DNA of 64,000 bases from Escherichia coli (GTDB taxonomy: Bacteria; Pseudomonadota; Gammaproteobacteria; Enterobacterales; Enterobacteriaceae): assembly GCF_045037415.1 (NCBI RefSeq), contig NZ_CP173438.1; one strand, 5' to 3'. This document shows positions 3,001-6,000 of this stretch, in pieces. A program made the position numbers. Each line of letters starts with the position of its first letter. The stretch's first letter is position 1.

Positions 3001-6000
3001 AATACTTCGAGTTACCAAGCAGTGGTCAGGGGGTAAGTAGCCAGCCCGAGGCGTAAGAACATGACGGCAGGGTTCAACTTTAATAACTATGCAGCAGGTT
3101 TTTGTTCCGCTCCCCCGGCGTTAAGGGGAAATGAGGTCAGCATGGATACTATCGATCTTGGCAACAGCGAATCTCTGGTATGTGGCGTGTTCCCCAACCA
3201 GGACGGCACGTTCACCGCAATGACGTATACCAAAAGCAAAACGTTTAAAACCGAAAATGGTGCCCGTCGCTGGCTGGAAAGAAACTCAGGTGAGTGATAT
3301 GGATTTCGACACAATCATGGAAAAGGCTTACGAAGAATACTTCGAAGGCCTTGCCGAAGGCGAAGAAGCTCTCAGCTTCAGTGAGTTTAAACAGGCGCTT
3401 TCCAGCTCGGCAAAATCTAACGGCTGATAAGCGAAGCAGCACCGCGAGGAATCAGTATGCAGAAACGAGAACCCGTCATCATCGCGCCAGACTATACCGA
3501 TGATGAACTTTATGAGTGGATGCGCCAGAAAATTAATGCAGCGCAGGATCTGAAATGGGCCAATGAAGCCAGGACTAAGCAGGCTGAAAATCTGTCCGCT
3601 CTGGAGCAGGATATCACCAGGCTGGAAAAAGCAGCGGCATTAAGCATTGCCAGAATGGTTACATACCCGCGTTAATAGCTAACCAACGAAGCTAAGGTTG
3701 GTAATTAAGGAGTTCTCCACGGGTCAGGTGGAGTGCGTGCGCCGGACACGGGTGAACATCCGGCACTGACAGTTTACTGAAAGGATATGTCCCTGAAAAG
3801 TCAGGGCATAAAGCGAAAGCGCACGGCGAAATTGGTCTCTCTGTACGGTGTCGTTAAATTTAGTTCGACCGTGCGCTTCCGGTTGTGGCACTCCGCGAAA
3901 TGGCGCGGCGGTAAGTATGGCGGGGTTATTCCTTCCTCCGTTGAGGACACCGGGTTGTCAGGTTGACCATACGCTTAAGTGACAACTCCGCTGCAACGCC
4001 CTCTGTTATCAATTTTCTGGTGACGTTTGGCGGTATCAGTTTTACTCCGTGACTGCTCTGCCGCCCTTTTTAAAGTGAATTTTGTGATGTGGTGAATGCG
4101 GCTGAGCGCACGCGGAACAGTTAAAACCAAAAACAGTGTTATGGGTGGATTCTCTGTATCCGGCGTTAATTGTTAACTGGTTAACGTCACCTGGAGGCAC
4201 CAGGCACCGCATCACAAAATTCATTGTTGAGGACGCGATAATGGAAACGTTATTACCAAACGTTAATACGTCTGAAGGTTGTTTTGAAATTGGTGTCAAT
4301 ATCAGTAACCCTGTATTTACTGAAGATGCCATTAACAAGAGAAAACACGAACGGGAGCTATTAAATAAAATATGCATTCTTTCAATGCTGGCCCGTTTAC
4401 GTCCGATACAAAAAGGATGCTGGCAATGAATACAGCATTTGCACTTGTTCTGACAGTTTTTCTTGTTTCCGGAGAGCCAGTTGATATTGCAGTCAGTGTT
4501 CACAGGACAATGCAGGAGTGTGTGACTGCAGCAACCGAACAGAAAATTCCCGGTAACTGTTACCCGGTCGATAAAGTTATTCACCAGGATAATAACGAAA
4601 TCCCGGCAGGTCTTTAAAACAGTTCCGTAATAAATATCCGGTTTCATTCTTATATGCCAGCAATGGCAGGGATTTGTTCACCCTTAAATCTGTAATGAGG
4701 TAAAACAAAATGAGTAAAGTCTTTATTTGCGCCGCCATTCCGGACGAACAGGCAATAAAGGAAGAAGGTGCCGTCGCTGTAGCCACTGCCATTGAAGCCG
4801 GTGATGAACGTCGCGCCCGCGCAAAATTTCACTGGCAATTCCTGGAACATTATCCGGCTGCTCAGGACTGCGCTTATAAATTTCTTGTCTGCGAGGATAA
4901 ACCCGGTATACCCCGCCCTGCCCTCGATTCCTGGGATGCTGAATATATGCAGGAAAACCGCTGGGATGAGGAGTCTGCTTCCTTTGTCCCGGTTGAGACT
5001 GAATCCGATCCGATGAACGTCACTTTTGACAAGCTGGCCCCTGAAGTACAGAACGCTGTCATGGTTAAGTTCGACACATGTGAAAACATCACCGTTGATA
5101 TGGTTATTAGCGCACAGGAATTGTTGCAGGAAGACATGGCAACATTCGACGGACATATCGTTGAAGCGTTGATGAAAATGCCAGAAGTTAACGCCATGTA
5201 TCCGGAGCTTAAGCTGCATGCCATCGGGTGGGTTAAGCATAAATGTAAGCCTGGTGCCAAATGGCCCGAAATTCAGGCAGAGATGCGCATCTGGAAAAAA
5301 CGTCGTGAAGGTGAACGCAAGGAAACCGGAAAATACACGTCTGTTGTTGATCTCGCCCGCGCCAGAGCCAATCAACAGTACACTGAAAATTCAACAGGAA
5401 AAATCAGCCCGGTCATTGCTGCCATTCATCGCGAATACAAGCAGACATGGAAAACACTGGATGACGAACTGGCCTACGCTCTCTGGCCTGGTGATGTGGA
5501 TGCCGGAAACATTGACGGCAGCATCCATCGCTGGGCAAAAAATGAAGTTATCGACAACGACCGCGAAGACTGGAAGCGTATCTCGGCATCAATGCGCAAA
5601 CAGCCTGATGCCCTTCGCTACGACCGCCAGACTATTTTTGGCCTTGTCCGTGAACGTCCGATCGACATTCACAAAGACCCTGTGGCACTGAACAAATACA
5701 TTACTGAATACCTGACTACAAAGGGCGTGTTTGAAGATGAAGGAAGAAATCAGAGCGCAACTGATACTCTCTCGTCGCCAGTACCAGAAACTGATGCAGT
5801 GGAAACGGCAATTCCGGACAACGAAAAAACCGAATGCAAAGTGGAAGTCGAACCATCTGTAGAGCGTGAGGGGCCGTTCTACTTCCTCTTCACCGACAAG
5901 GATGGCGAAAAATACGGTCGCGCAAACAAACTTTCTGGTCTGGATAAGGCGCTGGCTGCCGGGGCAACTGAAATCACGAAAGAAGAATATTTTGCCCGCA

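Follow-up and report, generated by a model that had tools for sequence, protein, structure and literature searches.

The 565-bp interval at positions 3676..4240 of the 64,000-nucleotide Escherichia coli stretch analysed here (the window) is a locus already known: dicF, as carried by a Qin-type E. coli prophage. We regard it as practically certain that the interval belongs to the dicBF early-left operon of a Qin-like lambdoid prophage adjoining ompW and that its transcript is processed as in K-12. The gap looked empty because automatic annotation passes over the RNA gene: gene calls were taken from a 100% identical genome as annotated by RefSeq, and the annotation of such identical genomes places no RNA gene at the dicF position, which is an omission of automatic annotation and not counter-evidence. 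The boundaries given in the preliminary description proved exact, with the gap running from the ydfC stop codon (3673-3675) to the dicB ATG (4241), and the tight packing of the neighboring early genes was likewise borne out, ydfA and ydfB being separated by 1 bp and ydfB and ydfC by 29 bp, while dicB and ydfD overlap by 4 bp. Of the interpretations offered there, the structured RNA was the correct one, as the gap holds the DicF small RNA (sRNA), which had not been named, together with structured processing elements.

The gene order, ydfA-ydfB-ydfC-dicF-dicB-ydfD, is that of K-12, and Pfam matches confirm DicB, DUF1482 (ydfD) and DUF1391 (ydfA). On the 5' side, ydfC (3457..3675, plus strand, RefSeq annotation) is the last protein gene before the gap and is 98% identical to K-12 ydfC; DicF is regarded as originating from its 3' UTR. 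On the 3' side lies the RefSeq-annotated cell-division inhibitor gene dicB (4241..4429, plus strand; Pfam DicB PF05358, E 9.9e-37, positions 1-62 of 62). Over its whole length the gap shares 97% identity with the 567-bp spacer between ydfC and dicB in K-12, and 3,530 of 5,426 complete E. coli genomes have a copy that spans at least 80% of it, so it is not a chance feature. A scan of genome contigs gave matches only in Escherichia, E. albertii, Trabulsiella and MAG contigs that are probably contaminated, and returned no new variants. Compared with K-12 Qin, the prophage here looks more complete, with an intact exonuclease, xis and int adjoining ompW, and it carries a LexA-family repressor where K-12 has DicA; the conditions of induction may therefore differ from those in K-12.

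The identity of dicF (4014..4071, plus strand) follows from an Rfam comparison of the kind that the preliminary description had proposed, in which the DicF family RF00039 matched over its full length (model positions 1-52 of 52 at 4015-4066; 76.7 bits, with the gathering score at 48, E 3.6e-15). The 53-nt DicF at 4014-4066 agrees with K-12 dicF (b1574) at 53 of 53 positions in the alignment of the window with K-12, and it lies in the same operon context, in a spacer of 565 rather than 567 bp. Differences from K-12 are found in a variable patch in the apex of the long hairpin upstream and in a lineage-specific 59-aa open reading frame (ORF) that is missing from K-12. The fold of DicF has a free energy of -15.9 kcal/mol (z = -2.32), and its stem (4029-4035/4059-4065), followed by UUUUU at 4067-4071, forms the intrinsic terminator and Hfq-binding module. 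A simple terminator scan did not flag this hairpin because its 9-nt apical loop exceeds the 3-8 nt limit of the scan. In K-12, DicF is an sRNA that acts by base pairing in an Hfq-dependent manner: it keeps ftsZ from being translated, and manX, xylR and pykA are further targets that it represses; its processing by RNase E as well as by RNase III and its Hfq-dependent repression of ftsZ have been documented (PMC10448788, PMC5069750, PMC9438474). A 190-nt species requires RNase III and a 53-nt species RNase E (PMC10448788), and a 72-nt DicF has a 3' end generated by RNase III (PMC5069750, PMC9438474). In the window the RNase E-dependent 5' end is placed at 4013/4014.

Identity, position and structure were established here for each element around dicF, all of them on the plus strand. 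Directly upstream of the structured leader of the 190-nt species is hairpin B (3807..3888), a long and nearly continuous stem with arms at 3807-3829 and 3865-3888 and a hypervariable apex. Its predicted minimum free energy (MFE) is -31.1 kcal/mol (z = -2.44); 21 pairs were modelled, of which 19 form in the sequence of the window, and over 29 variants the stem is 97% paired, compared with 26-42% in slid controls, with two pairs showing compensatory change. Between dicF and dicB lies a second structured element (4072..4240), whose assignment rests on fold, covariation and Rfam similarity and which resembles the sRNA family STnc100. Its hairpins at 4098-4113, 4162-4188 and 4190-4204 (CCUGGAGGCACCAGG) lie within a 20-bp long-range duplex formed by 4075-4094 and 4205-4224; the second of the three contains the GTTAAC-rich patch remarked on previously. 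The fold of this spacer has a z-score of -5.03, a value equalled by none of 200 shuffles; 95.5% of its alignment is paired against 32-41% in slid controls, and compensatory changes occur in the closing duplex and in a CCUGG hairpin. The structured element stops 5 nt upstream of the dicB ribosome-binding site (RBS; 4229-4233).

We infer which structure serves which nuclease, and that the K-12 results transfer to this 97%-identical copy. Both hairpin B and the spacer duplex offer the approximately 20 bp of duplex (about two helical turns) looked for in an RNase III site, and both are put forward as RNase III substrates because lengths counted from the published species fit. Counting 190 nt back from a DicF 3' end at 4066 or 4071 leads to 3877 or 3882, in the 3' strand of hairpin B, which would thus be the substrate that sets the 5' end of the 190-nt species, with a predicted cut at ~3877-3882. 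The sequence in Fig. S1 of PMC10448788 begins within the apex of hairpin B, and a published RNase III cleavage is denoted there as 813/814, a numbering whose origin is not given. By the same length arithmetic, the 3' end of the published 72-nt DicF falls at ~4085, inside the 20-bp spacer duplex, which would then be the RNase III site that parts 72-nt DicF from the dicB mRNA.

In the pathway that we propose, the operon promoter upstream of ydfA would be derepressed and transcription would proceed through ydfC into the gap, where it would either end at the DicF intrinsic terminator (4029-4071) or continue past it. Cleavage of the long hairpin at 3807-3888 by RNase III would yield an RNA of ~190 nt consisting of the structured leader and DicF, from which RNase E cleavage at 4013/4014 would release mature 53-nt DicF. 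In read-through RNA, RNase III cleavage within the 20-bp spacer duplex would instead give 72-nt DicF, with the dicB mRNA keeping a short leader. DicF would then block translation of ftsZ and, together with DicB, bring cell division to a stop.

The 109-nt leader of the 190-nt species (3889..3997) is defined by covariation, and against Rfam it gave nothing at E < 10. Its helices are H1 (3893-3897/3904-3908), H2 (3910-3912/3949-3951), H3 (3921-3925/3935-3940) and H4 (3952-3960/3980-3988), the last enclosing an invariant 19-nt loop at 3961-3979. A possible pseudoknot is modelled between GUAUGG (3915-3920) and CCAUAC (3967-3972); this helix is 99.8% paired across variants and includes one covarying pair. 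In the alignment as a whole, for which, as for that of the spacer, copies were chosen by an exact-match pattern, 97.7% of cells are paired against 34-53% when slid, and six pairs show compensatory change, a number that none of 500 shuffles reached. A caveat is that the fold of the single sequence has a z-score of +0.10. A covariance model of the leader (R1) recovered 72 distinct full-length copies at 64-143 bits. This covariation-supported and possibly pseudoknotted RNA domain, not represented in Rfam, may be new.

Stx2c phages and the ban leader of phage P1 also carry copies of the leader, there joined to other modules of a seed and a terminator. In the P1 ban operon (the 'dicF-like region' of GenBank AF234172) the same structured leader, at 76% identity, is followed by a terminator hairpin; relative to the dicF leader, H3, H4 and the pseudoknot have changed in a compensatory way, and the predicted unit measures ~180 nt compared with 190 nt at dicF. 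Transcription of the P1 unit, unlike that of dicF, begins directly at the C1-controlled Pban promoter, and RNase III does not release it; its single-stranded 'seed' and its terminator are also different, and the genes downstream are tRNA genes and ban. Members of the family that we propose may be long DicF, the primary transcript from the P1 Pban leader, and at least five further classes of seed and terminator found among lambdoid and Stx2c phages. That the leader is a conserved pseudoknotted domain which, combined with swappable seeds and terminators, defines a phage RNA family of ~180-190 nt and has a function of its own is a tentative proposal, to which we give rather less than an even chance. 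A function of its own is suggested because the leader is more conserved than DicF and because its 19-nt loop is invariant; these features suggest, as candidate roles, a platform that binds a host protein or nuclease for sRNA maturation, or control of read-through past the terminator into the toxic genes downstream. In an MFE fold of 400 nt, GGCGG(UAAG) of the leader pairs with the DicF terminator's 3' strand. An antiterminator role, in which the leader would compete for that strand, was set aside on inspection of the terminator sequences, since the P1-type and other classes are devoid of the complementarity. Prophage sequences resembling dicF have reportedly been described before, by Faubladier and Bouche in 1994.

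The dicF-dicB spacer also has relatives. The Rfam family STnc100 (RF02076) aligns to 4064-4273 over its whole length (model positions 1-206 of 206), with the closing helix and the inner hairpins in common, at 38.7 bits (E 4e-7); since this is below the gathering score of 47, the spacer is not a formal member; relatives score 34-44 bits on the same model. STnc100 and the related PasD are prophage sRNAs that, like the spacer, are found in lambdoid and Stx prophages, whereas the spacer lies between DicF and dicB as an intercistronic leader with no known free sRNA form. The mode of action proposed for the RNase III duplexes of the locus has a counterpart in the early-left transcript of phage lambda (the N leader and sib), in which RNase III cuts long imperfect duplexes and thereby separates or regulates neighboring cistrons. 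The likeness is one of mechanism, with no sequence relationship claimed, and the dicF locus goes beyond the lambda sites in that its cleavages also mature a trans-acting sRNA. As a portable module, the spacer precedes dicB, kil and terB/tciA, and in Rac-type phages it stands directly before kil, so the comparison with a kil-like position in Rac-type phages in the preliminary description was a fair intuition.

The Rac prophage itself encodes the sRNA KilS (b4833) in the 5' UTR of kilR (Bar et al. 2021, PMC8175672). KilS, like DicF, is positioned before a cell-division inhibitor gene and is followed by the same spacer module; it has a DicF-type terminator hairpin (GGCGGCAUCAG...CUGAUGUCCGCCC and a U-run), and on the Rfam DicF model the corresponding hairpin of the related phage Rac-SA53 reaches 41.1 bits, short of the gathering score (48). 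It differs from DicF in its 5' (seed) region and in the gene downstream, kilR in place of dicB. The 109-nt leader is absent from KilS, where a stem like hairpin B is followed almost directly by the sRNA, and a search of Rac-SA53 with model R1 did not find it.

Upstream of hairpin B, the 5' part of the ydfC-dicF spacer (3676..3806, plus strand; 131 bp) is a run of small hairpins that folds better than its shuffles (z = -2.99), and from ~3697 onward it moves with the dicF cassette even where another gene replaces ydfC. Its last hairpin, ccctga-aaag-tcaggg at 3791-3806, had been noticed in the preliminary description and is indeed present; it has one compensatory variant (CUCUGA/UCAGAG), while the commonest K-12 type loses two of its pairs. 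This hairpin was considered as a nut site resembling lambda boxB, given a GCCCUGAAAA-like sequence, and was set aside: its 6-bp stem carries an AAAG tetraloop and not a GNRA-like pentaloop, and it is degraded in the K-12 type.

Protein-coding readings of the gap were weighed against the RNA elements. The statement that no ORF above the threshold is present does not hold literally, as the mechanical ORF list contains a 201-aa ORF on the minus strand (4042..4647) and a GTG-started 97-aa ORF on the plus strand (4136..4429), each of which extends into the 3' part of the gap; its substance, that there is no real protein gene, stands because neither is credible as a gene. The 201-aa ORF runs antisense to dicB/ydfD; without a Pfam match or an annotation, and with a frame that stays fully open in only 29 of 122 distinct copies, it was rejected as a chance frame, and the 97-aa ORF is merely an upstream extension of the dicB frame. 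The shorter basic ORF of 59 aa (3787..3966, plus strand) exists as described, and could make the gap partly coding if it were a real small phage protein: it matches phrog_8854, a family of unknown function, along the entire profile (positions 1-59 of 59, E 4.7e-44), has an AGGA upstream of its ATG and is intact in 13 related loci. PHROG families, however, are themselves made from predicted ORFs, and no match was found in Pfam. Only 1 nt separates the AGGA from the ATG, too near for a good RBS. The ATG is present in 10 of 82 copies, the others having ATT or ATA with early stops or frameshifts, K-12 included; the frame is ungapped in 15 of 257 loci and intact in 13 of them, and all five substitutions among intact copies (5/5) are non-synonymous, with no purifying selection seen. 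Because of this rarity and substitution pattern we judge the call spurious. The ORF overlaps hairpin B and the structured leader, and thus covariation-supported RNA helices, and neither K-12 nor the identical RefSeq genomes have a coding sequence annotated there. From these comparisons it is very probably an ORF call laid over a conserved RNA, and we give only a slight probability to a genuine protein. The suggestion of a small-protein gene plus promoter is not supported, since the frame is not conserved and no sigma-70-like promoter was found on the plus strand.

A remnant of a decayed sieB- or kil-like gene whose frame has been lost would suit the early-left position, in which Rac-type phages have kil just after the same spacer. 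Yet of 14 six-frame stop-to-stop fragments of at least 25 aa, the ten of at least 45 aa that were scanned (the other four measure 26-33 aa) yielded nothing in Pfam, and in PHROGs only the family of the 59-aa ORF and one covering the extension of the dicB frame. High nucleotide conservation also speaks against decay, as do covariation of the RNA type and indels whose lengths are not divisible by three, and from 3807 on most of the gap is explained by DicF and its processing elements, leaving this explanation a nearly negligible probability. For 4072-4240 it could be argued that the region serves mainly dicB, as its internal promoter or operator, that a protein binds at the GTTAAC repeats, and that no RNA element is involved. 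One earlier study, cited in PMC10448788, proposed a promoter upstream of dicB; the nearly invariant core of the spacer would suit a DNA-binding site as well, and a weak promoter-like match lies on the minus strand (4176..4149). On the plus strand, however, no sigma-70-like -35/-10 site was found in 2800-4800, and the K-12 experiments gave no evidence of a further, internal promoter (PMC10448788). A DNA site would not be expected to show the compensatory changes seen in the closing duplex and in one hairpin, and the fold (z = -5.0), the full-length similarity to the RNA family STnc100 and the published RNase III 3' end, which length arithmetic puts within the duplex, all point to RNA, so that a promoter or operator as the main content of this region appears quite improbable.

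With the gap read as the dicF locus, what seemed an ORF-free gap in a packed prophage operon is a textbook sRNA gene, left unmarked by PGAP in thousands of E. coli genomes, so gaps of this kind call for an Rfam screen before being declared unexplained. This ST131-type strain has an intact dicBF module, with DicF identical to that of K-12, in a prophage seemingly more complete than Qin; because the repressor of this prophage belongs to the LexA family, division arrest by DicF and DicB could be tied to prophage induction. Taken together, the leader, the swappable seeds and terminators, the portable spacer and the relation of KilS to DicF suggest a modular family of phage RNAs that includes DicF; if confirmed, they would be of interest to sRNA biologists.

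The first 9.4 kb of the window form the left arm of a lambdoid prophage adjoining ompW and match several complete E. coli genomes, O25b:H4 among them, at 100% identity. The RefSeq annotation of one such identical genome (window coordinate = locus coordinate - 601) gives the gene order as a LexA-family repressor (2153-2869), ydfA (3142-3297), ydfB (3299-3427), ydfC (3457-3675), an unannotated stretch, dicB (4241-4429) and ydfD (4426-4617), followed by exonuclease, xis and int. The gap that the preliminary description placed at 3676-4240 is borne out exactly by the ydfC end and the dicB start. 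Its statement that no ORF of at least 60 aa lies there requires qualification, as two such ORFs on a mechanical ORF list enter the gap, although neither is credible. The 201-aa ORF at 4042..4647 (minus strand) is antisense to dicB/ydfD, unannotated and without a Pfam match, and is a full-length open frame in only 29 of 122 distinct copies; the 97-aa ORF at 4136..4429 (plus strand) is not a separate gene but the dicB frame extended upstream.

An Rfam scan of the whole window matched the full DicF model (RF00039) at 4015-4066, scoring 76.7 bits where the gathering score is 48 (E = 3.6e-15), so that the structured RNA offered as one option for the gap proved right. The curated annotation of E. 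coli K-12 MG1655 runs from ydfC through the ncRNA dicF (b1574) to dicB with a 567-bp spacer, to which the window aligns at 97% identity; DicF is identical in the two, with a single mismatch from there to dicB. We conclude that the explanation of the gap is a long-known sRNA locus and as such already known. The gap looks empty for the sole reason that automatic annotation leaves dicF unmarked: it goes unlisted in the RefSeq/PGAP records of 100%-identical genomes (L001), and in a spread sample of E. coli matches to the gap, the RefSeq features beneath the match were almost always 'none'. Among 5,426 complete E. coli genomes, 4,774 match the gap, and in 3,530 the match extends over 80% of it or more. 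Because the DicF sequence is identical here, its targets in this strain are expected to be those of K-12. Rfam gave two further matches elsewhere in the window, one to an rdlD-family antitoxin RNA (57692-57757, minus strand, 86.3 bits), the other to a long-variable-arm tRNA (34637-34718, plus strand, 53.4 bits).

Two other readings had been offered for the gap. That of a decayed gene is unsupported, because the ten fragments of at least 45 aa, out of 14 six-frame fragments listed down to 26 aa, matched nothing in Pfam or PHROGs except phrog_8854 and a PHROG over the dicB-frame extension. The reading of a small-protein gene plus a promoter drew on a 59-aa ORF, the whole of which aligns with phrog_8854 (unknown function; E = 4.7e-44). 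Since PHROG families derive from predicted ORFs, we tested this ORF for coding behavior. Its start is ATG in 10 of 82 copies; those others that contain this region have ATT or ATA and mostly early stops or frameshifts, K-12 included, and among 257 loci with this region the frame is ungapped in 15 and intact in 13. All five substitutions among the intact copies are non-synonymous, a single nucleotide separates the end of AGGA from the ATG, and the frame overlies hairpin B and the structured leader. The 59-aa ORF is very probably an ORF-calling artefact; with the frame so rarely intact and no internal promoter found in K-12 (PMC10448788), this option is likewise unsupported.

Comparison of 80 loci retrieved via DicB, together with loci retrieved by DNA pattern and annotated phage records, shows the gap to be modular. 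Module A (3676-3806) is a series of small hairpins (fold z = -2.99), among them, at 3791-3806, the ccctga-aaag-tcaggg hairpin singled out beforehand. Hairpin B (3807-3888) has a hypervariable apex and a stem modelled with 21 pairs, of which 19 form in the window; this stem is 97% paired over 29 variants, compared with 26-42% when the partner strand is slid, and contains two compensatory pairs. The dicF module (4014-4066, with a U-run to 4071) ends in a terminator hairpin of -15.9 kcal/mol. Some prophages (L010, L046, L011, L066) lack hairpin B through an exact deletion between two direct repeats, CGCGAAA, near position 1150-1160 of the respective locus (corresponding to window 3814-3898), which takes out the presumed RNase III site while the leader and DicF are retained.

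In K-12, DicF is excised from a polycistronic transcript initiated at dicBp, as a 190-nt species with an RNase III-dependent 5′ end and a 53-nt species with an RNase E-dependent 5′ end (PMC10448788). The passages of PMC5069750 and PMC9438474 that cite Faubladier et al. 1990 attribute the DicF 3′ end to Rho-independent termination or RNase III cleavage, and a 72-nt DicF to an RNase III cut of the full-length RNA. This published processing fits the structures in the window. Counting back 190 nt from the DicF 3′ end leads into the 3′ strand of hairpin B (3877-3882), a count of 72 nt forward from 4014 leads to 4085, midway along the 5′ arm of a duplex in the dicF-dicB spacer, and the Fig. S1 sequence of PMC10448788 begins in the hairpin B apex. 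Because these positions fall there, length arithmetic would make hairpin B and the spacer duplex the two RNase III substrates.

That spacer, module E (4072-4240), folds far better than shuffled sequence (z = -5.03) into a 20-bp duplex (4075-4094/4205-4224) around three hairpins, one of which (4162-4188) accounts for the GTTAAC patch of the preliminary description. Its helices are 95.5% paired over 21 variants (32-41% when slid), compensatory changes occur in both the duplex and a CCUGG/CCAGG hairpin, and it aligns to the entire Rfam STnc100 model at a sub-threshold score (38.7 versus 47 bits, E = 4e-7). Module E is a portable, STnc100-like leader: depending on the phage, the gene immediately after it is dicB, kil, terB/tciA or one of two unidentified ORFs (MLNVAIENQNGW... 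and MQNNPNKCRTLW...), as seen in the window and in Rac-SA53 (L084 1534-1723), Shigella phage 75/02 Stx (L085) and P7 (L087 1501-1616). Several of the genes downstream are cell-division inhibitors or toxic genes. Translated in the dicB frame, window 4136-4240 (plus strand) matches positions 1-35 of 72 in phrog_24763 (E = 1.8e-23; unknown function), a family that, like phrog_8854, probably stems from ORF calling on conserved RNA. The K-12 Rac prophage has an annotated sRNA, KilS (kilS b4833; L302 2906-3003, minus strand), in the kilR 5′ UTR, upstream of kilR; its terminator hairpin is of the DicF type and module E comes next, so that it looks like the Rac counterpart of DicF. DicF goes unmentioned in the paper that described KilS (PMC8175672).

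Upstream of DicF lies a highly conserved 109-nt leader, module C (3889-3997), which is the most conserved part of the locus, exceeding DicF itself; nothing in Rfam matched it at E < 10. Eight copies served to build a covariance model, which retrieved 72 distinct full-length copies (64-143 bits). In their alignment 97.7% of cells are paired, against 34-53% in slid controls. Compensatory change is seen at six pairs, as many as in 0 of 500 shuffles, and at the second pair of hairpin H3 G-C, U-A, A-U and C-G are all seen; in total, four helices are supported by covariation. Outside the model, GUAUGG (3915-3920) can pair with CCAUAC (3967-3972) in the invariant 19-nt H4 loop; this helix is 99.8% paired with one covariation (GCAUGG/CCAUGC in the P1 lineage) and may form a pseudoknot. 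Four caveats apply to these figures: for the nested helices the alignment had been fitted to the model, the retrieval pattern fixed some of the H4 loop, the sequences are close relatives, and folding of the single sequence does not surpass shuffles (z = +0.10).

The dicBF prophage of the window differs from K-12 Qin in having a LexA-family (CI-type) repressor (2153-2869) instead of DicA and, at 4710-8602, seemingly intact genes for an 823-aa exonuclease, an excisionase and an integrase adjoining ompW, and is similar to the O157 'PPompW' prophages. It may be inducible and, as its repressor is a LexA-family protein rather than DicA, under conditions that may differ from those in K-12. Of the phage records on deposit, 77 contain the dicF-dicB region, some of them from phages that were induced or isolated, for example mEp460_ev081 and Evi (records H66-H76); a 2016 paper reported that about 2,000 phage genomes yielded neither DicF nor DicB.

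The leader also occurs in phage P1 (L083 2497-2602) and a Stx2c phage (L086 1508-1615). The modules that come after it, each a seed plus a terminator hairpin, fall into at least six classes (aligned for L012, L014, L010, L006, L105/L108, L086 and L083); among them are DicF proper, DicF variants with Rfam model scores of 34-61 bits, a type found in Stx2c phage and one found in P1. In P1 the C1-controlled Pban promoter lies ~30 nt upstream of the leader, and a terminator follows; the primary RNA predicted from this layout is ~180 nt long and corresponds to the same unit as the 190-nt DicF. The structured leader, with the modular family it implies, is the only item here that could be new, a reading we consider less likely than not; the variety of modules behind the leader suggests a modular sRNA family with exchangeable seeds.
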